A DNA stretch of 61,594 nt, counting the filler, from Jimgerdemannia flammicorona (lineage: Eukaryota), in assembly GCA_003990765.1 (NCBI GenBank). It is 3 parts of 3 records of this genome, joined end to end, with 100 filler letters (N's around TTAATTAATTAA, not from the genome) between each part and the next. Parts side by side here need not be neighbours in the genome. Positions count along the whole stretch, not along the records: positions 20,566 to 41,030 come from RBNJ01001676.1; positions 41,131 to 61,594 come from RBNJ01001677.1; 1 more part is not named here. One strand, 5' to 3'. The notes under the pieces are model-generated. The model had not been told where the DNA came from, made no database searches, and saw nothing but the letters and a program-made list of their open reading frames with translations. The position numbers and the translations under genes are program-made. Positions 21,451 through 49,350 of this stretch are shown in pieces; position 1 is the first letter of the stretch, and the number at the start of each line of letters is the position of its first letter.

Positions 21451-21498
21451 GCAACTGTTACTACTCTATACCACCTCAACAACCTGACCACCAGAACA

Positions 21499-21906: not shown

Positions 21907-22023
21907 AACAAGACCCCAGCCCAACCTACTGTGAGCAAAGAAGAACAATTCTACAAGAAGATAGAAGATGGATATGTACCAAGTAGCCGATGCCCTCATG
22001 GTATTAGAATGTACTCTTCCTGA

Positions 22024-25554: not shown

Positions 25555-25965
25555 AACCAAATACTCTGCACCGATCCATACATACTATATATTATCCTTC
25601 TGAACATTATAACTATCATGAACCAAGTCAGGAACTCAGCAAAACAAGACAAGAATATCGACCCTCTGGAAAAATAGCAAAACTGAAAGCAAGCCTATTC
25701 TCTCCATACCACTAGTGGGAAACAAGGCATAGACATTTAAGAAGATTCCTTAGAGGAAATTCTCCAGCAGTAAATGATGTCAGAATCACTTCCGGTGCAC
25801 GGTATTGAACACATGACCCTTTAATGTGTGAATCCAATGCGTTAGGCAACTGTACTACGAGCATGCCACTTTCTGAGAAAATGGACCTTACTAGACTTTT
25901 GACCTTCCAAACGGTATAACAACACTAGAACAAATTAGAAGGCCCCGACGAGGACATCGAAAGCT

Positions 25966-25978
25966 AAGAAGGGGAGAG
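25966..25978 (+). promoter_or_regulatory. Polypurine tract
   Basis: AAGAAGGGGAGAG one base before the TG start of the LTR. Confidence 0.85.
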
Positions 25979-25979
25979 T

Positions 25980-28053
25980 TGTAAGCGCACAACCTCCAAG
26001 CCACCGAAGTTACATGTCACCCTCTGAACAAGCCACTGAAATCACACGCGACCTCTGAACAAATCTGGAAATCACCTGCTTGATCACAAAGCTGAGTCAA
26101 ACTGAAGTCACAGTGCACAAAGCTGAGTCAATACGAAGTCACGGAACACAAGATCTACACAAATGGAATCTTACCAATCAGGACCAAATGCATATATACT
26201 GAGCACTGAGACGCGTCGAGTCAGAGAACCAAAACAAACAACAAACCACAACTTCTAAACACACAAACATGACCACTGAGATCTACAACCATATCCGCGC
26301 TGATATTTGGAATGCCATTGTCAACCGAGCTACACCCCCTCTACCCCTCATGAATATCCATGGCCTGGCACCCCTCTACTTCATGGAAGCCCGATGGAAT
26401 GCCCTGAACATGCTTAGCGAGGCCCACCGAATTGGACAAATCTCAAGCTACTACCAGATCGGCCACCTCCTGGAAGACATGGTCGAACACCACCATGATA
26501 CAGATATTACCCAGATGTCTCAACACCAGAAGCTCATTGCCCGCAAACATCGGGAACTCTTCTATGAGTACAATACCTTTATTCCCCGCCTCCGAGTCAC
26601 TACCAGCGAAATGGTTGCTACCCTATCCTACAGCCAAATCGAGGACATGATACAAGAACTCAACCACAAGTACCTCAAATATATCCAGACTACAGACAGA
26701 ACCTTCCTGCACCCTGACGACCACATCCTGCAAATGCCTCAAGTTGGATACGCCATGAAGGACGTCTATGATATAATCCACTTCGATAAAGATGAAGCAG
26801 AAGACAATGATCCCTCTGACACCGACATGACCTCTAGCCAAGGATCTCTGCCAACCCTGATCACTCCGCCAACCTTGCCGATGAACTTACAACAGTTCAT
26901 AACTACATACGAGACCTATTGGGACAATGACCACTGGCACGAATACCAACCTGCGTTCACCCCCAACTACTTCAACTATAATGAAGAGACCGGAGAACAC
27001 AACCTGTACCTCCAAACAACCCTAGAGATCGAACCAACAACCCCACCACCTGAGTATGAGCGACTCGAACTACAGCCGCCAGCTTACTACAACCCCGCGA
27101 CTCATAGTGCTGTAACTTATAAAAGGTACGCAGACAGCAAATCCGATGAAAGCGAAGACAATACACCCATCCTTCGCCCACCAACACCTTATCCAGCATA
27201 TGAAACAGATGATACTATCCTGTGGGACGGAGATGAAGTCCCAATGTATTACTATCTCAGCCAACAAGGAGAAGTTATCCACGAACCACTCTTCCTAGAT
27301 GACTACTTCATCAGAGATGATGCAATCGATGGTGATGTCATCGAAGACTACCCAGATAGTGCCTAAACCTATAATTAGTCTAGCAGTCATAGTATAGATA
27401 GATTAGCCTTGTACAACGTGACTGTGAACTGACTCAGCAGTCAGACGATCTCTTGACATGTCAGATCACACTTGTACTATGTGACTGCATTCCAACTCAG
27501 CAAGGTACTTAGTGCTACATCCATATCTAGCATAGTCCAGATAGCCCCTCACTAGTATAAATACCCCCTCCCCCAGACCTCAGAATCTCAGACTCGAACA
27601 GACTTGAACAATCCGAACACAACTCCTGAGCACTTCCCCACAATATCCCTTCACACAAATACTCCTAGTATAGCAATATCATGAATAGCAAATAAACCTA
27701 TTCCATAACCCACAAACCACTCTTAAGTAAACCCCCTCCCTGTTAGGTCTCATTCTTAACCCCATCACGAAATTTCCTAATTGGGTATTGTCTGCAGCGA
27801 TACACCAATTCAACTAAGCTGGTCTTAGTTTCTTGAACTTCCTGAAATACAGAAATCCTGAACATCCAGAACTAGTCCGGAAAAGGACTTTGGTTGAGAC
27901 GTCAACCCAATCTTGAAATCAATAAGCATAGAGGACGTACTCTATACGAAATTGATCTTGACCATAAGAAAATGGTCTTCCAGAATATCCAGAACTTCCA
28001 GAAAACCCTTCCAGAACTATGTAACGGTTATCCTAAAAAGCAACCCTCTTACA
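25980..28053 (+). repeat. 3' LTR (2074 bp) containing a gene cassette
   Basis: Starts TGTAAG after the PPT and ends CTTACA (6-bp IR); TATAAATA at 27556, AATAAA at 27691. The 5' LTR is not visible for confirmation. Confidence 0.8.
26269..27366 (+). CDS. LTR-embedded accessory protein (365 aa): helical N-terminal domain plus acidic, Pro/Tyr-rich tail; function unknown
   Basis: Intact ATG-to-TAA ORF; CCAAT at 26174 and TATATA at 26193, CA-rich leader; homologous to the ORF at 46789-47775. Confidence 0.85.
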   Translation: MTTEIYNHIRADIWNAIVNRATPPLPLMNIHGLAPLYFMEARWNALNMLSEAHRIGQISSYYQIGHLLEDMVEHHHDTDITQMSQHQKLIARKHRELFYEYNTFIPRLRVTTSEMVATLSYSQIEDMIQELNHKYLKYIQTTDRTFLHPDDHILQMPQVGYAMKDVYDIIHFDKDEAEDNDPSDTDMTSSQGSLPTLITPPTLPMNLQQFITTYETYWDNDHWHEYQPAFTPNYFNYNEETGEHNLYLQTTLEIEPTTPPPEYERLELQPPAYYNPATHSAVTYKRYADSKSDESEDNTPILRPPTPYPAYETDDTILWDGDEVPMYYYLSQQGEVIHEPLFLDDYFIRDDAIDGDVIEDYPDSA

Positions 28054-30958
28054 CAATCTCTCCAAAATCTTCTCCTTTAGATTCCTACCTATAATCTTTG
28101 TCAATACTATTTCAATCTCTTATCCAGTCTTTATTTCTTAACTTTCTACTTATAGCCTATAATCTTATCAATATTCTTCCAATAAGTACTAGCTGGGTAC
28201 TTAAATCTGCTCTATCACTCTTTTAAAGACAGTCCTTCTGTCTACTATCTAGATATCTCAGATATTGCTACTTCTATAAATCTCACTCTCTCTATCCTAT
28301 AATATAAGAAGATAATATTAAGTCTTCACTAATGATTCTCACTCTTCTGATACCTAAATTATCCTTCTATCTCTACTTTCTAATGATCTGACCAATGATA
28401 CTATTAGATATTTATCTTATCTAAAATATTTTTCAATTTTTTCTCACTAGAATCCAATCTAGCTAAGAGCCAATCAGTCTTCTTGTTAATGAGTATCATC
28501 AAGTAAATAGCCCAGTGTCCTCATCTTTTTAGAGTTTAACACTATCTATCAGGCCCATCTCTCTCTCTAACTATAGTTATTTTGTTAAACCTGGAGATAT
28601 AGTCACCTCAGTACTCTCATCTGATCTGACTAATTACTTCTCATATATTATATTAAAATATCCTCACAGAATATTCAAAGCAACTTCTTCTATACCCTTC
28701 TAAGCTAACCATCTCTTTAGCTATTGCTTTTGCTCTCTATTAATTGCTAGAAGATATATTGAACTAACTACTAGCCTATCTCTCATTTCTCTCTACAGCT
28801 GACCTCAAACTACTATTGTTGAAAGTTCTAACTTCTGTCAATTTTCTTTTTCCATATCTACCAAGATCTCAACTTATTCACTCTATCTTATACTAATAAA
28901 CTATTTCTTACTCTATTCTATAAAATACTCCTCTCTCCTTATTTATATATTTACAAAAAGATTATGTTATAATATTGAACCTTCAATTAGTAGAATACCT
29001 TTCTTCTCTTTACTTTATCTTACATCCTATTGATATTTAGAGATATTATTCACAGTTATTTTATAATATATAATAAAATATTTAAAGGTCTGTAGCCTCT
29101 CTATATCATTTTTAGTTTTAGTAAAAATGATATCCTTCTGCTCCTTACAAATTGCTCTTCAGATATATCTCTCTTTCTCACTCTCACAGAAGTTGGACAC
29201 TCTTTTTACTATCTCTTGCCTAATTACTACTATGTATATCTTATCTATCTCATAGTCTTTCTTCTCTATCATAATAGCAATCAGAGCTATAAGGACCTTA
29301 GACTCCTAGAGGACAATATTCAAAAAGCTTTTCCATTTCTCCTATAACTCTTTAAACATATCCATCTCCTTAACATTCTTCTCTTTCAGCTCCTCTAGTA
29401 CTAGCTTAAACCATACTCACTTTGAGAACTGAAGTTAAGAGTCTAGAGGCTCTGCTCAGCTTCTAAAGTATCTTCCAATCCTCTGAAATATCTAATAATA
29501 TATCTATCAACTCTAGCTCTCTTTTCTTATCTACTTTTATTAACCTTACTACCTCTCCTATCTCTAGATAGTCCCAGAATACCCTTATTACTCCAGCTAT
29601 TTAAACATTCTTACTAGAGGTCTTCTTTATCACTTTGGTCTCTCTATCTTCTTCAAAGCCTTCTCTATATTCCTCCTCTATACTGACCTATTTTCTTACT
29701 ACTTAGATATATTGAAAATATATCATTCCTTCTAGCTATAAGTGTGACACCTCAGTCTCTTTTATCACCTCCATCTGACTGCTTATCTTCTAGACCCTTT
29801 TCTCTATTTTAGCTATTATATATATGCTCTACTATCTTCTATAGTCTCTCTAATTCTGTTCTTCTCATTCTCTTCTACTTATTATCTTTTTCAATTTAGA
29901 TCTAGTTCTTAGATACTTCTTTTTACTTCTTCTTTTATAGGAGTCTTTTTATCTCTCTTTTCTCTAAAGTTATTATCAGTTTATCTTTCTTTTATTCAGA
30001 TCCTTTTCTCCTCTATATCTTATACTCCTGTTCTATAATTTAAATAATTTCAGATCAATTCTTCTTTAGATATGTCTTTTCTTTTTTATCTAGTCATACT
30101 ATTATCTCATAATTGCCATTCTGTAACTTTATGCTCTCTCAGAATATAAAACTAAAATTGACCATCTCTCTATATGGTCTAAAGACCTCTGTAATTATTA
30201 CTTTTATCTCCTGCCTCTCTAATATATAGATACCTTTTACTACTAGTCTCAATGTCCTTAGATCTTATCTCAGATATCTTATTATTTCAACCTTGATACT
30301 CTTTACCACTAGACTCTTCTCTAAGATAGTTACTGTCTTTATCTTCTTTATAAATTCAATCTCTACTATCTCTATAGAAGAGATAAACTCTAGCAACTCT
30401 ACATCCTCTACTATCTCTTTAATAAGCCTCAACATCTCTCTAGCAGAGAGTCTCAATCTTAGAAAATTTGCCAAGACTACTTATAAAGATACTGACTTAT
30501 AGAAATATAATTACAGTATTAGCTCACCAAATCTAGCTATAAGGGAAACCTTTCTCTTATATACCCTCAGAAATATTAGCAATTATACTTTCAGTTACTC
30601 TATTTCTACTTTTAGTAGCTTTCTCAGCCACTCTCTCAGCTCCAGAATTCCTAGTCACACTCTCTTACCTCTGACTCTATCTGTTATCTAACTAGTTATC
30701 TAACTCCTCTCTCTATTAATATTATAAATTTCTCTCTCTATTACTATAGGTTCCATAGCTCTATTCTTCTTTTCTATTATAGTATACCATCTCTCAGCTC
30801 CTCTTTCACTTCTTACCTCTCTCTCACTACTCTCTATATCTCTTATACCAGCTACTGCTATAAAGCTTTTAGACAGTCTCAGCCCAGATCTTCTTCTCTT
30901 TAGTCTCTTTAAGCTCATTGAATTCTAGCTCACTATACCTCCAAAGTTTACCTGAATA
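28054..30958 (-). mobile_element. L1/Tx1-like LINE, 5' half (ORF1 plus endonuclease), heavily mutated
   Basis: ATTCAGGT near 30958; ATGAGC at 30918 as at 49614; IISLNIN endonuclease N-terminus remnant near 29050. Confidence 0.7.
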
Positions 30959-33523
30959 TTATATTATTAGAATCAATTGAAAGCTTAACTCTTATTATAT
31001 CTAGTATATTCTAAAAGATGAAGTAAAAACTATTTAATATATTGATTTTATGAAAGTATGCTCTTGTGGCTTAGCTCTTTCTAAATAGTTCAAATATACT
31101 CATACTTAGTATACTTATATATCTTATAGTATAGTATATATTAGAGATATTTATAGTTACTACCAGAGCTCATAATCTTTATTATAAATGATTATACATA
31201 AGACTGAACAGAAGAAGTAGTTTATTTAAATTATATAAATTATATATATATATATTATACATTACTGATAAATGATATAAAACTGATAAAATAGTATAAA
31301 GTTATATACTGATTTATTAAGTTGCCATCTTAATAATAAAAGCAGTACTTACTGAAGAAGTTTAAGAAAATTTATAGTCCATTATCTTTATAAATAGTAT
31401 TATCTCAGATATCAAGAAATATATTCAAAAGATAGTAGTTAATATTGATCAGTAAGTATGAATTATCTAAAGATATTAAGAAGTTGACCATGAAGATCTC
31501 TGTCTAATACTTAGATCTGATTGTTAAATTCAGTATATTAACAGTTAGCTACCCTGTAAGCAAAGCTAGCAGCTATAGAGAAAGCAAGGAAATAAAGTAT
31601 TATAATTCTCTCACCAGTATTACTATTAAGAGTACACTACTCTCTTCCTGTCACTATCATTACTGGACCACCACTCTGACCTCCACAGCCACAGTCAGAT
31701 ACCATGATAGACAGCATGACTCAGTTACTATAAGACCTATCCACTGCAGTAACTCAACTCACTCAAAGAATGAACTGACCTTCAGGACCAAGGCCCCCAT
31801 GGAACAATGCTCTTAGATCTAATGATACCAAGCAACCTAGCCACGTGTAGTTTCTTGTAAAATTTCTCGCCATATGCCCTAGAAATGGTGTACTTCGGGA
31901 CAGCTAATAGTAAGATATGCGAGAACACAATGGCCGGAATTGGTTTTGTTAGTAGGGTAGTGGATGAAAATGTTGTTGAGTGGCGGAAGTAGGTGAGTGG
32001 AGTATGAGGTGGTTCGCGACGGCTGCGATGGTTGATATTAAATCGCGAGATCTCATTTGTCTTCTTGAAAAGGTTGCGGAGGATATCGGTCACTTGATGC
32101 GTTGGTATCCTTTCTATCGTAAACAGGAAAGAAAAGTATGGATTAAAGATTGAAAATTGTGTTTGCGCACGCAATCGCCTATAGATGGGAAAACTAGCGT
32201 AGCGGAGATTGTACAGTTTCGCAATCGATATTTTCAATTTTCCAAGCGGATCGGAGTATATGTTGGAAAATCAGTAACCTTTTGCAATTAAGCGTTCGGA
32301 CCAGGAATCCTCTTCCAGAAAACATTCATCATCTCCCAAAACAATTGCACATAAAATGCGATATTTTTACATGTATATACATATTAAATATTTTATTTTA
32401 TTTTATTTTAATTTTTTGTAGCGAATGGGATTCAGATAACGTGCAAAGCCAAAATCTTTAGCTCAGATCTGTCTAATATTTACCGGTGTGGAGAATCACC
32501 GATACATATATTCGCCGTTTAACCTCTCGCCCTTTCATCATTCCAATGCCAGCCCAAATTGACATTACATAGTGGAAGTCATGCTATTCACGAATGTGAT
32601 ACCGTTCTACTTTGACGAGGGTGAAACATAATTTTCTGATGACGTGGGTAAATCCAAGCTGTCTAAATTTTCCTGTCCGAGCGCCCGTCAACTGATAACG
32701 TGGTAAATCCAAGCTGTCTAAAGTTCTCCCGCACCGGCGCAGGTTGTGCGACGGCCCAGCAACTCTTTCTAGGTGAAATGTGAGCTCATCGTTTGCCACG
32801 CTGTGTATATCTCGCGTCGCATGGATCCTAATTTGCGAGACATCCCACCTCCGCAGCAAGGGAAGCGTAGCGGTGAAGTATACCAGAATACAGTGACATC
32901 GTAATCTGACGGAATACCGAGATTAAATAGTTGGGTGTTAATAAATATTGATGCCGCTGATTTCGCGCAGAAATTGCACATTCACATGGCATCTACAAGT
33001 ATTATATTACCATCCCTCTAGTTATTTTTCCCAGCAACAGACTAACATGCATCTGAGATGCAGGAGAATAAAATGGAAATGAACTTTTAAGTCTTGGGTA
33101 TCAGGTTGCATGATTGTAATACGATACGTCGATTTCATAGAGTTGACGGCGTGGAGAACAGACCAAGCGATCTCGAAAAATCCCGTCGTGTTGGTATAAT
33201 CAGGGTGAATGGAAAACGTACCATGCGCGATCCATAAGACTAGCAGGGAGCATCTAGATATCTGGTTAATCAAGTCTGTGGGCATGATCCTAAGAAAATT
33301 GGTACTGAACAAGAATATTGCCCGTGTTTTGCGTAATGTGAGTAGTATCTACAAATTTGTATTGCAAACGTACGTTGCCTTTATTCAATTTTTAGTTTCA
33401 GTTTTGGGTTGAAAGTCATTTTGTGTTTTTCTTTGTGCATCTTGACCACAACCACCAAAACCCCTCGTGCCAAAGAAAATTCGGCTATTCCAGCTCATCC
33501 TGCAACTGCGACGGCGGCACCGA

Positions 33524-33895
33524 CTATGACAACTTAGCATGAACGCGAAGCCTCTGGCAGGTGTTGACGTGGGCCCTGTATTCAGCGACAGTCAACCACT
33601 CCCCACAATAGGGACAGCAGGCGTGCTCACCGTCGTACATGTCCGGGTATTCGGGTGGCGGGGAAAGACCTTCAGGATGCTTATGCTTTCTGTAGGCTTT
33701 GGTGCCCTGGAACTTGACGAGGCACTGGGGGCACTGAAGGTCGAGGTGCTTTTCCAGGATGTGGAGGTAGTATTCTCCCTCTACGCGACACACGTGGTTA
33801 CACTTGACTCTTGGACGCTTGTCGTAGGTACACCGTTCCCAGAAATGAACAGGTTCTATTGCGGGGGAGCCGATGCATAGGCACAGTTTTAGCAT
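33524..33895 (-). CDS. Small zinc-finger protein (123 aa; C2H2-like, C2H2-like and C2HC motifs)
   Basis: C-x9-C...H-x4-H, CPQC...HKH, CPYC...H-x3-C; TATATATAAA ~140 nt upstream and a CA-rich leader; lies in CpG-retaining DNA. Confidence 0.65.
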   Translation of the reverse strand: MLKLCLCIGSPAIEPVHFWERCTYDKRPRVKCNHVCRVEGEYYLHILEKHLDLQCPQCLVKFQGTKAYRKHKHPEGLSPPPEYPDMYDGEHACCPYCGEWLTVAEYRAHVNTCQRLRVHAKLS

Positions 33896-36800
33896 GATCG
33901 TCTCGCTTATTGCCTCAGCCGAAGGTTAAAGTTTCCGGGCTCGCGTTGCAGGAAGCAGGGGGGTTGAAGGAAAGGATGAGTTGTGTTTGTTGTCTGTTGT
34001 TTTAATTAGTATTTGAGGGTACTTCCCCTTTTTTTATATATATTATGACTGCTTGAGATTGTTTTCCCTTATCAGGATGGTTTCCGTGGTCTCGGCAACG
34101 CTGTCAAAAGTCCTCCGCGGCAACGCACGGCAACGCACGGTTCTACCGAACGATCTTTTTCAGATTCGGAAACCGCATTGTTGTTGGGCCCGCGCCTGGT
34201 CACTTGGCATCATTGAACCTATGATAGGTTGTTTCTGTGGGACCAACACCTTCCAATTGGAAGCCCCTTTCCGTAATAGGCATCGGTCATTTTTGTATCG
34301 TTCCTAAACTCATTTTTAGCGATTGAGGCCGCAAGAACCAGGCACTTGGATGTAGGAAAGCGTTTTGCAAACACGAACGTCAACAAAGCGTCGGCGAACG
34401 TTTACTGTCTTCAAAGTAATTATATTGACAGACAAACAAACATTACCATTACCACTACCATGCTCCTAAAATGACTTAGTGAGATATCTCGCCAAGATCA
34501 ACTATTGCTAGCACACTGGCTAGCACCGGCTGCCTAACCAACTCTGGGAATAAAATAATCACGAGGAAAATTATAGCATGCTATTGAATTCCTCGTAGGG
34601 TTGGTTGGTCTTTGGACTTTGTCTACGGCATTCCAACCAGTTCACGTGCTTCTTGCCGGGATACCTTACCGTTTCAATATCCTAAGTGCTACCCCAGTTC
34701 CATTTTCATCGTCACGCTCAATCGGTAAATCCATCAACTCCAATAACCCTGCTTGTTTCCTGTGCTCACACATATTCGCTACCATCTATAGTTCAGAAGC
34801 TCCCTGTTTGTTATTTTGACGTGGCGGTTAGAAGAGGAAAATCATTGAAAGTGTTGGCCCTCGTTTTTGTTGTGCCCGAGTGTGAGCTGCATCTTCATTG
34901 TCATTGGCGCAATCCGCGACGTCGGCTATTAATTATTTATATGTAAATTTCTAAATGTCGCTGAGAGGAATTGGCATTTATTCCTGTGTATAATGCCCGT
35001 TTTATTGACAGACCTCATTCCCGCCCCGCAATACATGGCAAAGGAAAGCGATTCCCGTACACATTAAGAGCATTGGCAAATTTTGAATAAATATAAGTGC
35101 CCCTCGCATCGTAATTATTCTTCCGTCTAAATACAGCTCGTTGGAATCGTCCCTTACCGTTTGCAACTACTTTTGGTGTTGTATGAGAGAGCACCAGTAC
35201 TGTTAATAAGGACGACGACCACAACAATTTCGAGCAGACGTGCAGATCCCGTAACATATGGCCCCGGCAATGGTGTCGACCTAGTCGCAATGGGACTTAT
35301 ACTCACGGCTACGTTTTAATATGGCGATTGTTGCTCCTCTCAACGTCGGCCATAACCTTTTGGCGGAGGAAGCTCCACGACAATTTAGACGTCGATCGCC
35401 CGAAGGCTTTAGATAACCGCACGCTGCGCTAACTGGCCGATATTGCCTTGTTGGTGAACTTAGAAAACTGAGAGGGTATATGCAGGAATTACCGAAGGGT
35501 GAGGTTGGGGTGGATGGGTGATGCGGCGGGAGGTGGGAGACACGAAGGTTCCAGGTATTGGTTCCTAAGACGGATAGCAGGATGAGCCGAGCAGCGAGGA
35601 CTGGAACAACCACGTCCTCAAAATCAGCCCTACTGAGAATGTTCGTCGCCATCACAAAGACGCCACCGCGCAGACATGCAGATGTAGCATACTAGCATAG
35701 AACGATTACGTGCAACCCTCTTAGGGTTGCGTCTGCTTCCACGTACCTTATAGAATTATAGAGTCCTTAAAAATCTCCCATCCATCCAGATCATCCCCGA
35801 CGCCGACTCCGACGTCTTGCTGCCTCTCCTCCTAGCCAACCAAATACAGGTGAGACAGCTCCACTTACCCTGGGGAGTACACCACAGCATTTCGACCTCT
35901 TGACTCCTCCAGCCCTTGTGAAAGACGGAGGTGACACTATCTCTTCTGGCTTAAGGCTGCCTTTGACTCATCCTTATAGGGTAATAGTGCCTCATCCTTG
36001 ACTCGGTGGCTCAGTTAGACTCAACCTTTACCTTTGGTTAAGATTAACAATAACATAAACACAAACATAAACAGAAGCAGAAACAGAAACACGCCAAGGA
36101 GGCCTTGACCGAACCGGTCCGAGAGGTGGGAACACCACACTAAACCTGTTGAGAGGAGGGAGGTCCTGTAGAAAAAAAAAAAAAAAAAGGAAGAAACGTT
36201 AGTAGGTTAGTATTACGCCGCTACGCCGGGCCTGTGAAATAATAGAAAAAGAAAAAAAGAGTGGCTCTCCGATCAAACTGTGGTGGGTTGTCAACGGGCG
36301 CGAAAAACAGAAAGGAAAGAGGTGGAGACGGCGACGGTTGGAAGTGCTAGCCGCGTTCAGAAGTCACTGCATTTCATGCATTCTGGCGCACCGTCAACGT
36401 CCGCTGAAACACATGCAACGATTTCACATACTGAAGAAAAAAAAAACTAGCGAAAGATGACGGAAAGCTGGCGGATAAATTTTTACGGAAGAATAAGAGT
36501 GAAAACAACGATGGCAACATTTGAAATGGTACGATAGAAGAATTTTAAATTATGATCAATCATTCTATCAGGTTGGAAATCGTCTACATAGAATCTGAAA
36601 CACTTCGTTCCTTCCATAATTCTATTTCCCGCCACAAGTTCCATCGTTCATGATAAAATGCGAAAAATTCAAAACTATTATTTATTAAAGCACCGATAAG
36701 GTATAACGAAATGAGAACAAGAATGGGCCAAGGTAAGAACCAGTTCCCCTTGGCGAACGCAATTGTGCATGGGCGATTATACGTAATAAGGGCTTGTTTC

Positions 36801-39374
36801 CCTTCTGTGTCTGAACGTGTTGAGGTGGCGCTGCATGTTGATGGACCAGACATTTTAACACTACTCGTTCTAGAACCTTTCTTGTGAATTTCCAAGGGTC
36901 GTGCCCAGTATGAAAACGATTAGAAAGGATTTTATTTTTCAAATGCTTGAACTAATTGCACTGTCGTTTGTTCACAGCACGTCTACATCCTATTTATTTA
37001 TAACCATATCAATCTACCTTTCCTTAATATATCCGTTAGCTATTTTCTTTTTGTCACGATCACGATGATTCGATAAAAAAATAAAAATAAACAAATATGG
37101 GAGATCCACAATTAAAAAGATTCTCCCAAGTCACTTTTTAATCGCCTTGACCTCACATAAACCCAACAATAATTTGGTCATGGTTTAAATTGCAATGTTG
37201 TATTGTAGGATTCGACAAGTGCTGTCGGCTCCGCGAATAAAGATGGTAAAACTCCAACAAACGAACGTTTCACTCCTAGAATGGCAAGCGTTTTTCATGC
37301 GCATTGGTGTTTTGTCCTCTAGGATGGGAATTGGTAGGTCGAAAGAGTCTTTTTGGATTTTTAAATAATTTATTCACGAATGAGGATCACTGCTAAAATG
37401 TAAGGAACGGCTGAAGACGAAAGTAATAACGGTAATCGCGTGACGTTGGCATTTCCCCAGCCACTCTCCTACCTCTCCCTACCCTTACAATCGCCACAGC
37501 CGCGAGGCCAAAGACCCGTCTCTCTGCACTGACCAACACTTCCGCGAGGTCCCGCAAGCGACCCGTTACTGCACTGACGACCCATCTCTAACGTCGCTCC
37601 ACCCTATCGCACCCGTGAATGGCGACATGAAGGTTTCAAGGGGTGGGAGATAGGGGTATGGAGTGAGAACGAGGAGGCTAAGGTGAGCTGTTCAGTTATA
37701 TATATATCCTGTACGGCGATAGCCCTCTTTTTTGTTCCCGTGGCTCACTAATGTTCAATTATTCCTATGTCTTGATACAGCAAGCAGCCGCCGATAACAG
37801 AGTGAGTTGCTTAGGATACAGGAGGAACTTTTTTCGGCACGTATCCACCATTACCACTACCTTATTACCGGATCTCGTTATCACACACTTGATTTTAATT
37901 GTAACGTCTATTCCCGAAACAGCTCGGGATCGAGAAGGCGAACCGTACCAAATGACCTAGGTGACGCTCTCGAACGAAGAGTTTCGCCCCTCCGCTTCTA
38001 ACAACATGTAACATATCTTGCCTCTCTAAAAGACACCAAGACCGTCCGTCTGCACATTCTCTCCACGGATTAGGACTTCCTCCTGGTGCAGCAGCGACCG
38101 CTCCAAGTTTGGCTCAAGCAGCCGTACGCCGGAGACTGCATTCGTGTCGAGCCCGAGTTCCACCGGTAAGACATGGGCAGTTTGGGCTTGGTACTGAATA
38201 CAATCTCTGTTGGTCCCCGCCATGCTAAATTCTTCTACCCTCCCTGCACCCCACTTAGTGAGCCGCCCACGAGCGATCGGGAGCATCGCGATGGTGCCGG
38301 CGGATGCAGATAACGTTACCGCATGGGGAACGGGGCAGGTGTCGGAGGCGGATCTGGTATGTCTTTGTCTGTTTGGATTTTGTTGTATTGACGGGTCAGG
38401 TCTTCGTTCTCGAAAGAGCTCATGGGCCACAATCTGATGTGGTCGACCAACTCGGACGAACCGTGCGTGAGATGCAGGCGAGGGTTGTCAGTGGGGAGGG
38501 GGGTGTGTGTGTGATTATATGTGGGGAGGTTGGGTGTTGGGTGTCCGCCGGATTGAGCTTATTGAAACACTATTGCACTCAAATCAGAACATCCTATACG
38601 ACCTATTCGGTGGTGATCGCAATCGAATACCAGCCACCACAGTATTTCAGGATCCAACGTGAGTGAGTTGTATAAACAATATTTTTTTTTTGTATGATTC
38701 CGAAAATGAGTGACATTATTCATGGTTAAGAATTTAGATAATTGTGCGATAAGGGTGCAGACTGCCACAATACATAATAATGTATCTTCTGGCAAAATTG
38801 TGCGACGCATAAATTGTGAATAAGTTTCGCCGATCGGAGGGGTTGCACGAGACCGAATACATGATCACCAGGGTCCCTTTGCTCCACCTCTCCTTTTCCG
38901 TTATCAGCAATGCCTCGCGCGATACGCCGGGTGCAACATTGTCAAATAAGGAAACAGCCTCCTGTTAATTGGGTTGTGACGGATAAGATTGTTGTTGGCC
39001 CCGTTTGAGTTCTCAATTCGATGGTAACCGAAAACGGAAAAATTCGAGCGTCCAATCTGAAAGGGGTTTGTGGTCTGATCTCGATGATAATAGCTCCACG
39101 TTAATACCTAGGTCATTCACGCACAGTTATTGTACTCATTCCTCAATTTGATCTTCGAGCCACCCTTGGCGGCCATGCGAACACGTATATATGAGTGTGT
39201 CGCCCAGAGCGATTTCGTCCAGGTCGTGCGATAACACCTGGGCCAACAGTAATCTCCTAGAAGGTAAAAAACCAAAGTATACTCTCGCCATTGAGACACC
39301 AGCGCCTTCATTTCCGGGACGCTTATAATCAAGATACGTATATACTGGAAAGCAAACGTTCTCGATCCAGAAGG

Positions 39375-39375
<1 letters not shown>

Positions 39376-39410
<35 letters not shown>

Positions 39411-39448
39411 CAGAAAAAAAAAGAAAAAAAAAAAAAAAAAAAAAAAAA
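39376..39448 (+). repeat. Long interrupted poly(A) tract
   Basis: Read directly from the sequence. Confidence 0.9.
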
Positions 39449-41030
39449 GCCGCGTCCTATTGGGCCAGGAGATAACGCTAACGGAAAAAAATCGCCAATC
39501 ATACTTATCATATACAAAATGTTTGGCCAAAGGAACCTGTTTTTTTCTACTCTCAGGACATTTTATGCTACATTTGTGAAGTCAATATACTAAAATCACT
39601 GTATTTAATCCCCCTCTACGTAACGCGCCCCTCCATTTGTTGTCTTCAAACCAAACAGGACTCATTACTTTAATCGAAAATGTCGTTCGGAGAACGCTGT
39701 TAAAGTAAACGTAAAAATATTGACGTTTAGTTTGGGATATTTTATTTATTATTTCTGTCACGGCCCTGGCCGAGGCAGGAATTCGAGCCTGTCGTGGCTG
39801 GAAGTCGCCACAGGATATGACTCCATCACCTGTAAAATCCGGTGGTAATAACTGCAGTTAAAGCCCGGCGCGTGAACGGAGGAGGGACGGTGCCGCTGCT
39901 CGGCGGATTGAGAGAATGCGAGGCTAAGAAAAAGGAGTACTGGAAAGCGGTTGTCGCGTGCGTGATGATAGGGTTGGTAGGAGAGGGAGGGGGACTCTAC
40001 CATCAAATCCAAACAGATTGGATAAGGTCATACAATGTGGAAGAGCTGTACTTCATATACGTAGATGAACCTGGTATATACCACGTGTCACTGCTCGTCG
40101 CGTACGGAGAGCGCGTTGCCCTACACCATCACCTGTTTGGCAATGGCGACGCATGAGAAGGGCTTCGTCCTCCAAAGCACATATATTTGGTAGTTGACAA
40201 AGGTGCAGGGAGCGGCGCCGAAAACATTGTTTCGGCGTCGTCGGAACTCTTGAGTCATTTCCGCGATACAAAATGTTGATATAGTTCCCGACATATATAA
40301 GCTAATTCACGTATCGTGGCATCGAGCATAATTATCTCTAATAAACAGTCATCAGCTGACAATTTGCCACGTATAACATGGAGCGGGGCACGCTAAACGT
40401 AATATCTTATTATCAAGAACGGCGCGGTGGACATTTTGATGATCCCATTGTCTCCAAGGTACAATTTTCGATGTGTCCCGATTGGAAATAAGGATGAAAG
40501 ATTGTACAAAATAGAGTGTGGGAAATGTCCCTAAGGACTTGGCTTTGAAGGTAGTCCGCGTTCTTGAACTACCGACAAAGACCATAGGAATATATTACTA
40601 ATCAAATGAAAAGGTCATAAAACAGAGCAAATATTCTCCAGGAACCTATAGATGGACTTTCCTGCGATCCAGTGACTACAACAACCCAATGATCCGATTC
40701 GGATCGGAAAATTTTCATATCAGGATATCAAGGTTCATATGCAAAGACTAGTTTGCTCATAAGGTGACCACTTTTAAAAAGTTACTTCCCAGAGGTATCA
40801 CGATACGCCGTCGAAAGTTTTAGCCAGCAGTTCCTTTTGAAAGTTTTCGTTGGATGATGAGAAAACACGCCATCTCTCAGGGATCTTGCCGTTTCCGCCT
40901 AGGAAAGAATCCACGTATGATGGCACTCGTCAAACTTTGGCCGATCGCACGCGCAGCGCTAAGTCAACCAGTGTGTAAAGATATTATTTGTTTGTTTTTT
41001 GTTTTTGTTTTTTTTTTTTTTTTTTTACAT

Positions 41031-41130
41031 NNNNNNNNNNNNNNNNNNNNNNNNNNNNNNNNNNNNNNNNNNNNTTAATTAATTAANNNNNNNNNNNNNN
41101 NNNNNNNNNNNNNNNNNNNNNNNNNNNNNN
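41031..41130. other. Assembly gap with TTAATTAATTAA linker
   Basis: N-run with a central linker. Confidence 0.97.
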
Positions 41131-44100
41131 GTTTGGAGGGGGAAAGTGAGTATTCTTGTTCGGAAAGGGATGGGGGACATTGGGGACATTGGACATTGGG
41201 GGTTGCAGGTGGTGTGGGGAGTATGGAAGAGGCCTGGATGGGGCTCGTTGATGGTTGGGTCTTGTTACTGCCTGGCTGAGAGAGGGGAGAGGGTGGATTG
41301 GATTCGCAGATTGAAAGAGGCTGGTTTATTGAGAGAGGTTGGGTTTGACTATATGGGGGGGGACTTCAACATGGTACAGGATAAGGAGTTGGACAGAACT
41401 GATGGAGGGAGAGGCATGCGAGGTGAAAGTGGTGGGTTGGCGGACTGGTTGGAGATGGAAAGGTTGTGTTCTTTAGTGGACTCAGGGAGACATTTTTGGG
41501 CTGATTGGCAGGTGTATACTCATTGGGCAGCAGGACTGGGCTCTAGGATTGACTGAGTTCTAACAGCAGCGTGTTGGGGAGCAGATGTCTGGACGGTGCT
41601 GGGAGTCATATGGTGTCCATGGTCTGATCACTGGGGGTTACTTGAAGGGGGGAGGTTTGGGGGAAATGAGGATGGGCCCGGACATTGGTGGCTAAATTCT
41701 TCCTTATTGGAGGATAGGGTGTTGTGGGAGGGTTGGGAAATGGAGGTGGTTGGAGATATTGGCAGGTGGTGAGATCAAGGACTGGCAATTGGGGACCACT
41801 GGAGAAGGTTGAAGGTGAAGGCTCAGGGGTATTGGAGGGAAGTGGGGAAAGGAAAGAGTGCCCAGTGAAGGTGGCAGGTGATGTGGGCCTCGCGGCATCT
41901 GGCGGCGCTCATAGAGAGATAGACGGGTGTGCTGGAGAATAGGGCTGAGGCTGATTGGTATATTGCGAGAATCCGGCAGGAGGTGGAGGAGCTCAAAGGG
42001 GTGCTATGGAGAGAGGAAGAGGAGCAGCTGCAGGGGATGGTGGCCCACTTGCATTAGCAGGGGCTTGAGGAAGGGAAGAGACCTACCAGGTTCTTGTCAC
42101 AGTTGTTACAAGCACGACGAATGAGGCAGCAGTGGGAGAGAGTTTTGGATGAGAATGGCGAGCTGGTGGTGGGGACCTTGGTGATTTTGGGCCTATTGCA
42201 ATCCCAGTGGGGGAACCTTTAGAGTGAGGATGAAGGGGGACTAGATGCTCTGGACATTGAAAGGCAGCTGGGGGATTGGCACCTGGACCCTGCCATGGGA
42301 CTTGTGGCATTGGGGGACCCAGTGAGCGGTGAGGAGATTTGCAAGGTGGTGGCCTCTACGAGTAAAGGGACAGCCCTGGGAGAGGATGGACTCCTCTGGG
42401 ATTTTTGGCAGAAGATGACAGGGGTGCATGAGGTACTAGAGAAAATGATTGCTATATGTGATGAAGTTCTTCGGTCTGGTGCCTGGATTGGGGGACAGTG
42501 CTTGGGGCTAGTCTCCTTGCTATATAAGAACAAGGGCAGGCAGGAGGATTGGAAGAACTGGTGGCCAATCATGCTTCTGAACATGGACCGCAAACTGGTG
42601 ACGAAGATCTTGGTATTGAGGTTGCAAGGGATCACTCAGCAGGTGCTTGGTTTGGAGCAACATGGGTTTGTCGGTGGTCGGTTAATTCAAGATGGGACGG
42701 CCTGGGTTCATGGAGTGATTGAAGGTGCCCAGGCTACAGGGGTGGATGGCAGATTGGTGTTTCTGGACCAGGAGAAGGCTTATGATAGAGTGCGAAGAAT
42801 ATGGCTGGAGGGAGTGCTGAAGTGGATTGGTATCCCCCCGGGGTTCCGAGGTTCATTGATCAGCCTCTTGGAGAACAGTCAGGCAGCATTGGTCATCAAT
42901 GGCCACTGGGGGGTGACCTTCCCCCTGGGCCATGGAGTGCCACAAGGGGACCCCTTGTCACCCATATTGTATGCCCTTTCCCTGGAGCCACTACTGGACA
43001 GGATTCGGCATAAGATTGGAGGTTTGGACATTTTAGGGGTGAACTGGAAGGTGGGGGCCTTTGCTGATGATATGGTGGTTGGACTGGGTTCCTTAGGGGA
43101 TGTTGGAGAGTTGCAGAGGATGGTGGAATGGTATGAGCAGGGTTCTGGTGCTAAACTGAACTGGCACAAATGCGAGATGCTGGTGCTGGGTGCTGGAATT
43201 GTTGGTGGCGATGTTATTGGAACGATGGTCCCAGCTGGTGAACCAGTGTGCTACTTGGGGATCTACTTCTTGGTATTCAGATCTCTTCTTCCCCGGGCAT
43301 GGTGGGACCATAAACTGCTGGAGTGGGGTGATGTCTTGATGCGATGGGGAGACTGGCATATGTCTCTTGCCGGAAGGGTAATGGTGTTGAATGTGTACTG
43401 GATACCGAAGCTGTGGTATGTTGGATATTATTTGGATTTCCCACCTTGGGTAGTTAAGGGGTTGTTGAAGATGGCGAGGTCATGGATTTGGGGAGGACAG
43501 CAGAGCCAGATTGGTTGGGAGGTGCTCATACTGCCCTTGGAAAGAGGTGGGCTGGGCTTAGTGGACTTTACTAAGTGGCTTTTATGTCTGAGGGCCTGGT
43601 GGCTAAGGAGGGCAAGTGAGCTTAAAGGTCAGGAGTGGGTGCCACTCATGCAGAGGTTGTGGGAGGTTCGATACTCCCCACGTGGTGGCTCTGGTGACCT
43701 GCTTGCAATGGTGGCCATGGAAGGGAGCTGGAGGATGCAGTTTACAGGCTTTTGGTAGGGAGCAGTGGATGGTGCTAAGAAAATTGGCCTTCGGTAGTGA
43801 GGTGATGAGGCCGAGGAGGTTTGGGGACTGCAGATGTGGAGATGGGACAGGCTTCTATTGGGTGGTGTTCTGGTGGAGGACTTTCAGCTTGGCGAGGGTC
43901 TGGAGTGTCTGTGAGGCCTAGGTGGAGACCTGTGGCCTGAAGCCTGGCAGAGGGTTGGAATCGGAGAAGAGTGGGATTGGAATGGGCTCTGGCTTTGGAG
44001 CAAACAGGTGAGGCAGTGGCTGCCCCCCAAGTTCTGGTTGGCATGGTGGCAGATCCTATGGTGGAATGTGATGCTGAACTATCAGTCTGGTCACTTGGTG

Positions 44101-44677
44101 GATGGTGGGGTATTCGAGTGCAAGGATTGTTTCAATGTTGGTCAGGAGGGAGGAGTGGTACAAACACCTGAACATTGGCTTGGTGAGTGTGAGGTTTTGG
44201 GGGAGTTCTGGAGATGTATTATGGGCAGGATAGGGTTGGGGGCTGGGGGAGGGGAGGGAGGGGGGAGATGGGGAGAGCTTCGCCGGTGATTAGTGGGTGG
44301 GGTCGGGGATGAATGGCTGACCCTTGGCTGGGCCTTGGCTATGTGGGTTGGGTTGGCGGAGCATTGGGTACATGTATTTGAGGATGAGCATCGAGTTGGG
44401 GTTGGTGAAAAGGTGGCATGATGGGAATGGTTGCTGTTGGACATTTTGAATAGCTGGTGGCAGGGTTGGGGGATGGGTTGGGGGTACTGTAGGGGTTTGG
44501 TGCAGTGTATCTCTCAGAAGAGTGGTGGGAGGGTTCAGGTAGTGAGTGATCGGATGGTGCTTGGGTAGGGGGGGGTTGAGAGAGGGAGGTTGGGCCCCTG
44601 GGGAATTGGTTGAGGGAGTGGGTGCCATTGTATTGTTAACACTATAGACTTCGGTAATAAAGGGCAGTCTAAGAGAC

Positions 44678-44732
<55 letters not shown>
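41131..44732 (+). mobile_element. L1/Tx1-like LINE, best-preserved copy (5' end in the gap), with poly(A) tail
   Basis: APE motifs GGDFN, YTHW...SRID, SDH; RT; C-terminal CKDC...EHWLGEC; AATAAA then A-run 44681-44732. Confidence 0.95.
42295..43758 (+). pseudogene. LINE ORF2 reverse transcriptase segment
   Basis: NWWPIMLLNMDRK, QHGFVGGR, LDQEKAYDRV, GVPQGDPLSP, FADD, SGAKLNWHKC, YLG, GGLGL. Confidence 0.95.
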
Positions 44733-44735
<3 letters not shown>

Positions 44736-44955
44736 TATATCTCAGACATAACTGAAGGTATCAGAAACTGCAAAAAAGTAAAGAAGACACTGATCTGATA
44801 TCAATAAAGGGATAACTCATTACTATTGCCTTTCTCTTACTACCCTACAATAGGTATAGTAAATCAACCTAAGGTAGAGGGAGTATTTGTTGTGAAAAGT
44901 GGACTCAAAAGATTATCTACCAAATTTTGTAACTAGTAAAGTAGTAGGGAAAGAT

Positions 44956-45245
44956 ATCTGAATTACTCTATCTGAACTATTTCATTCAAATCACTTAATC
45001 CAAATTACTCAATCTGAACTACTTAATCTGAATTACTCAATCTAAACTACTTAATCTGAACTACTCAATCTGAATTACTCAATCCAAATCACTCAATCTG
45101 AATCATTCAATCTGAATTATTCAATTTAAATTATTCAATCTAAATCACTTAATCTGAATCACTCAATCTGAATCATTCAATCTGAATTATTTCATTCAAA
45201 TTATCTAATTTGAATTCTTCAATCTAAATTCTCCAATCCAAATTC
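44956..45245 (+). repeat. ~15-bp tandem repeat (ATCTGAATTACTCAA-like), probable hAT subterminal array
   Basis: Follows TAGGG at 44945 (hAT-like terminus) and precedes the transposase remnants. Confidence 0.75.
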
Positions 45246-46032
45246 TCTATATAACTATATACTGGATATATCTATATATGCAAATACACATATATAAATA
45301 TATATACATATAAAAATATATATACAAATATATATATATATATAAAAACATATATATAAATATATAAATATATATATTAATAGATCAGTCTTCAACAGTT
45401 TATAGTACCAAATGATACTTCAAGTCAAACATTTTCTAAAATCTAGCAATATTATGCTAAGACTAGAGATAATATTATTTGTAATTATTATAGGTAAAAA
45501 ATTAAAAAAAGAAGATATATTTATGATATAACTAATGCTTTTATTTAATATATATATTGTGGTGTTCGGTTATGTATAATGAACTTCAACTGCACGGCTC
45601 AATGTGTGCCACTTGGTGAAGCACGCGATGTATATGAGTGCATTCGCGATGGTTATGGGTCGATGATCACGTGACGGGTCGTTTGAAACGTGTGATAATA
45701 GCAGGAGATCGTTCAACGATGGTGGCTCAGGACGTTGATGGCTCAATTGTTTAGTGGATAAGGTGTTGTTGCTAACAGAGGGCGGTTATTATGCTGGCTA
45801 AGTTTCCTGGCGGCAATTAATCTTGTCGGCAAACTCGGCAACGATGGGCTTGCTCTTTATGCGGTTAATTAAAGTGGGCGACAGTCTTGACTTTAAGCGG
45901 TTCGTGGCACAGTAGGTCGGGAAAACGGAGGTTGACGGCTCGCTCATCCGTCTAACTTGTTAACTTGAGGGTGGGTTTACTGGGGTCCTTGGTGGTTGTT
46001 CTTGCTAGCTAGCGGGTCTTGTACTGGTATCC

Positions 46033-46471
46033 TTGAGTTCCTTGGCTTTTCGGGGTCTTGAATCTCGAATGGCGGTGAATGGCAGTCTCAAATGGTGGTG
46101 GTCGGGTAATGTTTTCTTTCTGTGGCAAGAGAAAATTCTTTAACTCAAACCTCGAGCGATCGTTGCTCTAGTTATCTTGTTCTCAGAATTTATCCGGTCT
46201 CTTGGAGGCAGTGTGTTTTCTCTGTAAAACTATCTGGCTGAATTGCGGGCGGTCCGTGGTCTTGAATTCTTGGCTGGGTCTCGGGTCTCGAATGGCGGTC
46301 GAATGCGCGGTCCAAATGGTGGCAGTCGGGTAACATTTTCTTTCCATGGCAAGAGAAAATTCTTTAACTCAAACTTCCGAGCGATCTGTTGCTCTAGGTT
46401 GTTATCTTGTTCTCAGAATTTATCCGGTCTCTTGGAGGCAGTGTGTTTTCTCTGTAAAACTGTCTGGCTGA
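46033..46471. repeat. ~200-bp tandem duplication inside the solo LTR
   Basis: ~46033-46241 versus ~46257-46471 (shared GGCAAGAGAAAATTCTTTAACTCAAAC and CTCTTGGAGGCAGTGTGTTTTCTCTGTAAAAC). Confidence 0.9.
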
Positions 46472-46788
46472 GGCTTTATTCACTCTAAGAATATGGGTTA
46501 TTTATACAAGTTTGCTAGCTATGGGAGGGGGGGCACAACTAAGGCTAAAGTATACTATGTTGTGGCGAACTTATGCTATTGGTTTGCATGATGCGAGATG
46601 CAGGCTATTGTTTACTACAGATTGGGTTGTAGGGGATAGCAATGCTGAAAACGGGTGTGACAATTATTTGCGCCGAATAGGGATAAGATGAGTGCTAGTG
46701 CTGGATATGGATGTTGTGGGTGGTAACACTGGGTTCGGACTTGCTGACATGAAGGCTACACAATTCTCATGGCTGACAGGTGGTGGTT

Positions 46789-47775
46789 CTAGAGGAAATA
46801 GTACCCTTTGTCCACGGCGAGCAAATCTTGCTGGGTTAAGATTTCTTCTTCATCATACCTCTCCTCAAAAGGGGGAAGCGCGGGCCAAGAAGTGAGGGGG
46901 TAGAAAAGTGGCCAGTCATCTTCGACAACATTCTCCAACCCTTGAACAGCTTGAATGCAGACAGAGGACTGGTAGACTCTCTGTTGCTCCTCTTCTTCTT
47001 CTGAAGGCTCATCAGTTTCAGTGTCAGAGGGGGTTTCTTCAGGGGCAGGGTCTTGGAGTTCTTGGGCTTCCTCCTTAAAGACAGGGACCTCTTGGGCTTC
47101 TTCTTGATTCGGTTCCCAAATGATGAGATGTGAATTGTGGCTGACAGGGTGGTGGGTGGTAGGGGTAGCTCCAACGGATGCTTCTATAGTAATGGGTGGT
47201 CCTTCAAACATCTCCATAAGGCTCATCAGGTGACCTTGATGGTTGTCTCGGAGTGGGGTGGTGTGGAAACCTGGTTGAGTAGGTTCGGTTTGTTGACTTC
47301 CTACAGCAATGCGGTTGCTGTCAATAGAGTTGGCTACTTCAGATTCTATCCAGTCAGCATCTTCAGTTGAAAGGCAGGAAAGGCTGCCAGTTGTTACTCC
47401 TTGTAAGTGTGCTATGGCCCAGGGAATATGGCAGAAGATTTGGTGGACACGGAGGGCTCTCTTGATTAGCCGGCTAGTGGTTATCAATTCAGTAATGAGG
47501 CCTTCCCGGTCATCTTCTTGAGTCTCATTGCGAAGGCGGTGTCCGATTTCGTAGTTATGCCAGAGGGTCATTCGTTCAGTAGTATCTTTGAGCTATTGGG
47601 TCATTATATACCAGTAGTTGATGAAGTGTCCAAGGTTCTTGGTGTAGAAGTTCAAGTGTTTGGAAGTATCTGGGTGCCAAATGGCCTTCTTGATAGCTTC
47701 AAAGATTAGGGTCTTTGGGCCAGGCAGAGGGGTAGAGTGGCGGGAGGTCTGGTTGGTTCGGTGAGTGGGAGGCAT
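46789..47775 (-). pseudogene. LTR-embedded accessory protein homolog with one premature TAG
   Basis: ORFs 47593..47865 and 46789..47571 are in the same frame, separated by one TAG; TATTTAA at 47831-47837 precedes an ATG at 47775; motifs shared with 26269..27366. Confidence 0.8.
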
Positions 47776-49350
47776 TGTGTGGTGGGTACTTGGTTCTTTG
47801 GTGCCGATCCCTGAGGCGGAGTATGGTTCCTTAAATAACGTGGTCTTCATTTTGGCTCGGATCATCTTGTCTTCTTTGGGATGATCACCTAATGGGTCAG
47901 GCTGTCTATTTGATTGTTATGCCATTATGTCATCTGACCTTAGCAGTCACTGGTACTCTATTGTCAATTGTGTACATCACAATATATATAATGTTATTTC
48001 TACCAACTTCTTTATATTATATAGCCAGAAGTTCAAAATACTTAGTGGGTCAACTTCAAATATATACATATCAATATATAAAAGACAAACACTCTAACAA
48101 AATCAAAAAGAATACAGAAATAAATAAAATTGATATCCAAGCTATAGTAGGTATATTTATCTGATTGCTCAACCATTTCTATATCAATAACCCTATTTAA
48201 TCAAAAATATTTAGTTATATTTTTTAGCAGAATTTTGAAATTAACTCATTTACTAGATTGTGTATACAGACTAACTATTCATAATCATTGAGAGTGACTA
48301 ATTATATAATATCTTTGATCTCCTCAAGTATGATTTATGTATATCTGCCAAGTACTGACACTATTTGTAAGATATTCTGGAGGCCTATAGGAAGAAATAT
48401 AATAATATTTGCTAGATACTTTAGATAAAATAAATAAATCAGAGCAATACTATAACTATTGTAAGCTGAATTATATATATATATATAAAGAGCTTATCAA
48501 TTTAATCTCATATTCAATAAATAGAATTTGGTAGACAGAATTTCATTTATAATTGATACATAGATATCTTCCAATGTAATTTTATTTCTGAGCATTAATA
48601 GTTATTAGATTGATCTCAATTGATAACTTAAATCTCTTACTTTTGACTTCATCAAACTTACTGATCCTCATTCTAGAGAAAATATCATGAATATTTTTAT
48701 TAATTATATCTGAGAGCTTGGGGTCACAAATAAGGTAAAAAGGAGAGACTTGTTATCTGGTTGATATTTTGAGAGAAGTCTTAAAATAAAACAGATTTTA
48801 TTGATTATTTATTTTTGCATAAATTTGCTAACTGAAAATTTCAAGTACAGATTTTAACTATTACAATAGATAATATTACAAATAACTTAACATTTTTCTA
48901 AAATTTAGTAGCTAATCTTTAACAGAAAAATATAATCTTTGGTATAGAAAACTGTTGTATATATTATTAGGTCCATATACTGAACCTTACTGTTCAGGAT
49001 TATCTTATGTATATAGACAAAATATCTGGAAGTAAAGAAACTCTGAGTATTGTCTTCAAGCTATACAAACTGGTTGTATTGATCTGATCATCTCTATAAT
49101 AATAAGATAAATTTACTGCACAGTACAGAGTAATTAGTTTAGTTCTAAAAGAGCTGATATTAGATGTCTGTATATATTAGAACTTGATATTTGTAATGAT
49201 CTAGCATATACTCTTTTTTCAGTTGGCTGAAGCAAATTATTTTGAATGACTAAGAATTGTTAATTAATTTCAAAACAGAAATTTTTTTTAAAAAAAAAAA
49301 AAAAAACTGATAGATTCTATAGTTACTGTTGATAAGGAAATACAGAGTGA

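Follow-up and report, generated by a model that had tools for sequence, protein, structure and literature searches.

In mouse mammary tumour virus (MMTV), a vertebrate retrovirus, the sag gene ('LTR ORF') is a sense open reading frame (ORF) of ~320 aa that lies wholly within the unique 3' (U3) region of the long terminal repeat (LTR), and hence in every LTR copy; its product, Sag, is a type II membrane glycoprotein. In foamy viruses tas/bel1 is a 3' accessory gene that reaches into U3, has a second promoter to drive it, and codes for a transactivator of both promoters, whose activation region is acidic. Cassandra elements (terminal-repeat retrotransposons in miniature, TRIM) carry in each LTR an independently promoted 5S RNA gene, which solo LTRs keep. 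LTRs are usually taken to be non-coding control regions, an assumption made by annotation pipelines, in LTR dating and in solo-LTR counts. Vicient and Casacuberta (2020, PMC7264820) assign the additional ORFs (aORFs) of LTR retrotransposons to the internal part of the element, in most cases to the interval from pol to the 3' LTR; brtn of the Botrytis element Boty is an antisense aORF in that interval (PMC7264820; 10.1101/2021.04.13.439636), and CERV of Cer1, a Gypsy-group element of C. elegans, is a regulatory accessory protein that exports genomic RNA (PMC10309623). An 'add. ORF' is drawn in some fungal elements by Novikova et al. (2010, PMC2864245), its location being left unstated in the accessible text, and the LTRs of the Podospora chromovirus crapaud measure 339-443 bp (PMC10787394). 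Apart from papers on MMTV, our literature searches for phrases placing an ORF in, within or inside an LTR brought up nothing but unrelated uses of such wording. Here we describe two long LTRs, A and B, each holding a sense protein-coding ORF in its U3, from a 61,594-nucleotide stretch of the genome assembly of the fungus Jimgerdemannia flammicorona (GCA_003990765.1), referred to in its entirety as the window.

LTR A (25980-28053, plus strand, 2074 bp) is the 3' LTR of a Ty3/Gypsy element, and LTR B (45558-47981, minus strand, 2424 bp) is probably a solo LTR. An intact ORF of 365 aa, ORF A (26269-27366, plus strand), lies in LTR A; the 328 codons of ORF B (46789-47775, minus strand), in LTR B, include one TAG, at 47593-47595. 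Both ORFs are in sense orientation and wholly within U3, ORF A ending 190 nt 5' of the TATAAATA TATA box of its LTR and ORF B 283 nt 5' of the TATAAATA of LTR B. The original prediction, made from this sequence by eye, had called ORF A intact and ORF B broken by a single stop, and both descriptions stand: there is no stop in 26269-27366, and the TAG in ORF B is the only one. It had also seen no obvious DNA similarity between the two LTRs, and none was detectable on comparison (best E-value 0.29). They sit in different pieces of the window and are not neighbours. The explanation we tentatively prefer, at somewhat less than an even chance, is that each of these long LTRs (2.07 and 2.42 kb) carries a sense accessory protein gene in U3, such that the LTR would be a self-contained transcription unit with a soluble, trans-acting product.

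Both ORFs appear to be genuine coding sequences. The stop-to-stop frame containing ORF A is 387 aa long, a length reached by none of 500 dinucleotide shuffles of LTR A (shuffle maximum 229), and the other five frames across the ORF contain 7-27 stops. The codon-position composition of both ORFs resembles that of the protease-reverse transcriptase and integrase regions of the element, with more G at the first position than at the second or third (G1 > G2, G3) and a C-rich third position. An exhaustive search of 1.84 billion representatives yielded only two true relatives of ORF A: P0002, with 91% identity over 128 aa (residues 1-128), and P0001, with 67% identity over 247 aa (residues 115-364); the frame is open in these diverged relatives, as it is in those of ORF B. 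Relatives of ORF B, at 67-79% identity, are P0004 (325 aa, intact, 79% identity), P0005 and P0006; the position of the TAG is occupied by Q in P0004 and P0006, and the conserved aromatic patches of ORF B and P0004 are identical. A third candidate relative of ORF A, P0003 (436 aa), was rejected: its E-value of 6e-7 against residues 111-148 is a score summed over repeats, the protein consisting of six near-identical repeats of ~68 aa whose Pfam matches are zero-stretch artefacts, and it does not match P0004.

Contigs of four public runs (X1, X4, X14, X20) were compared with 20566-28400, and those of all four cover ORF A. Among the 40 best-supported differences listed of 1311, a small and tool-selected set, five are substitutions in ORF A, of which four alter the third codon position and leave the amino acid unchanged; of the 26 in gag-pol, 13 are synonymous, and a further three restore stops to sense. 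Listed indels within ORF A amount to one pair, at 26738 and 26740, whose members compensate each other. These small substitution samples agree with what would be a pol-like constraint on ORF A.

Database searches support the view that ORFs A and B belong to no described family, as the original prediction had supposed in not recognising their domain. Pfam returned 0 families for either ORF even at E<=10, and PDB sequences gave no match below E 0.2. The ESM Atlas gave no usable match, the best score for ORF A (0.78, in a mostly-Mucoromycota cluster) being a lead only and P0004 having none. Queries A1 and A2 found no further copies in metagenome, genome or viral contigs, and a profile of the joint N-terminal region retrieved only three fragments that were already known.

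The element to which LTR A belongs is a chromovirus whose internal part occupies 20566-25551 (plus strand), as read from Pfam matches and a frame map, in the domain order gag zinc knuckle, dUTPase, protease-reverse transcriptase, RNase H, integrase (H2C2, core, SH3) and chromodomain. It begins at the piece edge, 20566, inside gag, leaving the gag start, the primer-binding site and the 5' LTR outside the window; self-BLAST of the window found no second copy of LTR A, as the position of the 5' end beyond the piece would lead one to expect. With at least nine in-frame stops in the frame map, and two frame changes besides, this copy is dead. Every listed contig of runs X1 and X4 has a sense codon (W, Q and W) in place of the gag-pol stops at 21080, 24188 and 24846; death in gag-pol came by private changes of the G-to-A or C-to-T type, and the LTR ORF stayed open. 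The dUTPase domain (21451-21879, plus strand, Pfam E 1.9e-30), which follows the gag zinc knuckle and precedes the protease, agrees with the dUTPase-bearing fungal elements described by Novikova et al. (2010, PMC2864245).

A polypurine tract, AAGAAGGGGAGAG (25966-25978, plus strand), ends one base 5' of the start of LTR A and 428 nt past the chromodomain, and the LTR termini, TGTAAG...CTTACA, form an inverted match of 6/6. Similarity to the contigs stops at these termini, with loose ends before 25980 (X20) and behind 28051/28053 (X4, X14, X20), and none of the four runs has any depth from 28164 on. Contig joints also fall at 25982 and 28053, one contig linking 28053 to pol at 23859 and another linking gag at 20773 to 25982; these look like nested copies that mark the same LTR A termini. 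The predicted extent of LTR A, 25980-28053, is thus borne out by the polypurine tract, the inverted TG/CA ends and the contig breaks. One X4 contig continues past 28051 into a stretch with a TGG-starting 12-mer, TGGTAGCAGCAG, a candidate primer-binding site; matches to this 12-mer within the window are triplet repeats, and the window contains no tRNA genes. Soil and root metagenome runs contain partial look-alikes of LTR A. The start of its U3 (25997-26152) differs between copies: 31/32-bp tandem repeats there vary in copy number among contigs, with joints that skip 31, 37, 62 or 70 nt.

LTR B has termini TGTGATG...CACCACA (inverted match 6/7) and (TA)n on both flanks. It splits a (TA)n tract and has LINE-like elements (long interspersed nuclear elements) on either side, with no adjoining Gypsy coding sequence. 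A target-site duplication of 4, 6 or 8 bp would be compatible with the flanks, but the (TA)n makes any such reading uninformative. We consider LTR B to be an insertion in a TA microsatellite, probably and best read as a solo LTR because the TG...CA ends are inverted and the (TA)n tract is split. Following ORF B on the minus strand are the TATAAATA (46499-46506), then an AATAAA (46475-46480), and, downstream of the TATA box, a 230-bp tandem duplication (46032-46471).

LTR A contains two putative promoter units built from one 31-bp module. Two tandem copies (26085-26152, plus strand), each with TGAGTCA (at 26093 and 26124) and AGTCAC, lie 40-110 nt upstream of a putative TATA-like box, CATATATAC (26191-26199, plus strand), which is 70-78 nt 5' of the ORF A ATG and separated from it by a CA-rich leader of about 70 nt. 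Two further copies, inverted (27400-27439 and 27463-27502, minus strand), precede the main TATA box, TATAAATA (27556-27563, plus strand), by 54-156 nt; that box is followed by the AATAAA polyadenylation signal at 27691-27696 (plus strand). The score of the inverted match was reached by one of 1000 shuffles; over the whole window TGASTCA is not enriched (11 found, 12 expected), and 3 of the 11 fall in LTR A. That each of the two TATA elements follows a doubled module supports reading them as what may be two promoters under common control, and the modules could also be plain enhancers, or the termini of some nested element. For LTR B, two in-frame ATGs (47868 and 47850) lie upstream of the TATTTAA at 47837, because of which the start codon and promoter of ORF B are uncertain, and a private promoter for ORF B seems doubtful. 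The original prediction had placed TATA-like boxes, TATAAATA and AATAAA in both LTRs, and these placements hold on reading the sequence; its further claim, that both genes are separately promoted, is plausible for LTR A only, where the doubled module precedes both TATA elements, and doubtful for ORF B, where ATGs lie upstream of the TATA-like box.

The two predicted proteins share a two-part architecture, a neutral helical N-terminal domain of 140-155 aa followed by an acidic tail of 170-220 aa with conserved aromatic patches. The helical part spans residues 2-141 in A and 20-153 in P0004 in AlphaFold models of low confidence, which are too poor for a comparison of folds. The acidic, Pro-rich tails noted in the original prediction were confirmed: in both proteins the tail is 21% D+E and 11-12% Pro, with net charges of -38 (A) and -30. 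Cys is absent from both (365 and 325 residues), and neither has a hydrophobic or transmembrane segment, the maximum Kyte-Doolittle 19-residue mean being 0.76 (A) and 1.07 (P0004). From their composition, the proteins would fit the role of a soluble regulator or adaptor.

Whether A and B are homologous is less clear. The N-terminal alignment first drawn by eye was reproduced by MAFFT with 21-26% identity and three small gaps (IW; Y-IGH-L; L..R; F; I..L; T; LS), and a BLASTP comparison of the single pair gave E 0.009. In the pairwise shuffle test proposed with the original prediction, the Smith-Waterman score of the N-terminal parts (z 2.96) was reached by 27 of 2000 shuffles, that of the full-length proteins by 316 of 2000, and that of the tails only by 527 of 2000; the alignment by eye is thus reproducible and statistically marginal. 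Profile comparisons were uneven. A family-A hidden Markov model (HMM) scored ORF B at a level reached by 2 of 2000 shuffles and P0004 at a level reached by 10 of 2000, its score against P0006 (-1.6) was not significant, and a family-B HMM against A was equalled by 96 of 2000. A second weak match near the C-terminus is collinear with the N-terminal one. We give about an even chance to A and B being divergent homologues, because their genomic position is identical and rare.

The mechanism we favour would work as follows. In LTR A the doubled, TGAGTCA-bearing 31-bp module and the TATA-like box at 26191 would form a U3-internal promoter, and transcription starting near 26220 would yield an mRNA of ~1.5 kb running through ORF A and terminating at the AATAAA of the same LTR (27691). 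Genomic RNA, whose 3' end would also carry ORF A, would come from the main promoter (TATAAATA at 27556), which the inverted modules precede. With an internal promoter and its own AATAAA, a 5', 3' or solo LTR alike could thus produce the protein. A soluble protein with a helical head and an acidic, aromatic-studded tail would fit a trans-acting regulator or adaptor; the function we prefer is activation through the shared LTR modules, in the manner of foamy-virus Tas. In its widest form this reading makes A and B one family of LTR-resident, self-promoted regulatory genes in fungal Ty3/Gypsy elements, every LTR would be an autonomous protein-coding unit, its product working in trans either on the promoters of LTRs or on the host's control of the elements, and solo LTRs, usually seen as inert scars, would go on feeding the activity of their family; in that form we think it rather unlikely.

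These proposals must be tempered by a number of observations that weigh against them. As to function, the nine-amino-acid transactivation domain (9aaTAD) pattern occurs 0 times in A against 1.8 expected from shuffles, leaving the activator idea without motif support, and the mean predicted local distance difference test (pLDDT) scores of the AlphaFold models of A and P0004, 31.3 and 36.7, are of low confidence. As to a common family, hhalign gave A and B a probability of 0.2% and a profile-profile column shuffle gave z 2.06 (11 of 400), so that the homology claimed in the original prediction keeps the standing of a hypothesis, marginal at p about 0.001-0.05. As to promotion, LTR B has no module duplicated before both TATA elements, and the TATA-like box of LTR B falls within what may be an N-terminal extension of ORF B; none of the listed runs with the LTR A stretch is on record as RNA, X14 and X20, whose contigs cover parts of ORF A, being RNA by guess only, and assembled contigs cannot show transcription, starts or levels. 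As to constraint and the paired LTR, the synonymous count of four in five is small and drawn from 40 tool-listed differences, and the 5' LTR that should pair with LTR A lies beyond the window, whose piece begins inside gag. The greater summed depth over 26068-28163 than over the internal part (928-2333 vs 234-869 in X1, 48-172 vs 18-84 in X4) is weak evidence, the runs having been chosen by LTR words and the depth summing all contigs.

The ORFs may instead be real accessory genes with no promoter of their own, expressed through a spliced subgenomic RNA as the 3'-terminal gene in the manner of env, Cer1 CERV or MMTV sag, the 5' and solo copies being silent passengers. The U3 of the 3' LTR belongs to the genomic RNA, where ORF A therefore stands directly 3' of pol, the upstream modules could serve the main promoter as ordinary U3 enhancers, and the private TATA box of ORF B is doubtful. 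What speaks for an internal promoter is that the arrangement of module plus TATA occurs twice in LTR A with similar spacing. The intactness of ORF A beside a dead pol points the same way and is weakly informative, since we ourselves estimate that a stretch of 1.1 kb would have taken only ~2 disabling hits. We regard expression from a subgenomic RNA as somewhat unlikely, and hold to internal promotion of LTR A as the preferred explanation.

Less probable again, and in our judgement distinctly unlikely, is that the ORFs are passengers with no role, either captured host sequence or newborn ORFs in an expanded U3, now decaying, with A and B unrelated and their likeness compositional. The homologues are indeed limited to a handful of near relatives, the hhalign comparison was negative, the tails are acidic and of low complexity, ORF B has a stop, and P0006 shows many changes of the Arg-to-Cys/Trp type that are typical of decay. 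Decaying passengers would, however, hardly be expected to remain open at 67-79% protein identity, to show synonymous-biased substitutions as in pol, or to keep aromatic patches identical between B and P0004, and the two LTR families agree in ORF position, orientation, size and architecture.

It is very unlikely that the ORF unit of LTR A is a small nested element, bounded by inverted 31-bp repeats and later copied with the LTR. Inverted module copies do flank ORF A, at 26085-26152 and 27400-27502, but the sequences outside the outermost copies differ, with no target-site duplication visible, and the repeats are doubled on each side at promoter-like distances to TATA elements; ORF A has no transposase signature in Pfam, and LTR B has no such flanking repeats. 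Most improbable is a mistake in the boundaries, with ORF A placed after pol and ahead of a far shorter LTR, and B being a single-copy host gene or a truncated element: it draws on the lack of a second LTR copy visible in the window and on the (TA)n flanks that make the target-site duplication of B uninformative, and is opposed by the polypurine tract and TG at 25980 with no purine run or TG start after the ORF A stop, by the breaks of the four-run contigs at 25980/25982 and 28051/28053, by the inverted TG...CA ends of B exactly where the (TA)n tract splits, and by the several diverged relatives that B has, as a repeat family would.

The window itself consists of three unlinked pieces of 20465, 20465 and 20464 bases, split by artificial linkers (N44-TTAATTAATTAA-N44) at 20466-20565 and 41031-41130. 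It is rich in repeats, including LINE-like elements with RVT_1 domains, small elements with direct terminal repeats, and AT-rich spacers. Two head-to-head copies of a 4.4-kb element, 82% alike and each with direct terminal repeats of ~525-700 bp, occupy 1-8951; their ORFs have no Pfam domain, and they may be non-autonomous LTR elements. At 13146-17625 a 4.1-kb unit lies between 500-bp direct repeats (90% alike), with an extra inverted partial copy at 17291-17625; it has long minus-strand ORFs, and its sole domain match is a weak one to RVT_1 (E 6e-4). AT skew is very strong across 13001-17000 (+0.37 to +0.41), where GC reaches 0.55. The LINE-like elements (41140-44697, 49802-55109 and 55563-60898) are 65-70% alike and have an extreme GC skew, ~+0.3 to +0.58 on the sense strand, whose sign flips in inverted copies.

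If the preferred explanation is correct, the LTRs of these families, with a conserved 1-kb gene in U3, would not diverge neutrally, and solo LTRs could stay genetically active. Fungal retrotransposons, too, would have come to a retrovirus-like genome complexity, in which, as with sag or tas, a second promoter accompanies an accessory gene, and ORFs A and B would offer a concrete candidate for a transposon-encoded regulator. Should the ORFs be passengers, they would still indicate that fungal LTRs can grow to 2-2.4 kb by taking up coding sequence.

Set beside the systems described at the outset, ORFs A and B resemble aORFs in being extra genes of unknown function, apparently conserved across copies and without relatives outside the elements, as these are characterised in the available part of PMC7264820, and differ from them in lying inside the LTR boundaries and in sense, that is, outside the internal region to which the aORF definition refers. 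They share with CERV a place in the accessory repertoire of Ty3/Gypsy-group retrotransposons, CERV being encoded in the internal region and not known to resemble them in sequence. In Cassandra the LTR-borne gene is a Pol III RNA gene, whereas A and B are protein genes. The likeness to foamy-virus Tas would consist in modules duplicated before two TATA elements in LTR A, with a predicted second promoter, and, in composition only, in the acidic tails (21% D+E, net charges -38 and -30); foamy-virus genes overlap the LTR only partly, and have no sequence similarity to A or B. MMTV sag is alike in being sense and wholly within U3, and different in that proteins A and B have no hydrophobic segment, are strongly acidic and show no Sag sequence match (Pfam, 0 families at E<=10), and in that their ORFs sit in the LTRs of fungal retrotransposons. 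In position the arrangement thus corresponds to MMTV sag, and in its putative second promoter to foamy-virus tas; it is a member of neither family.

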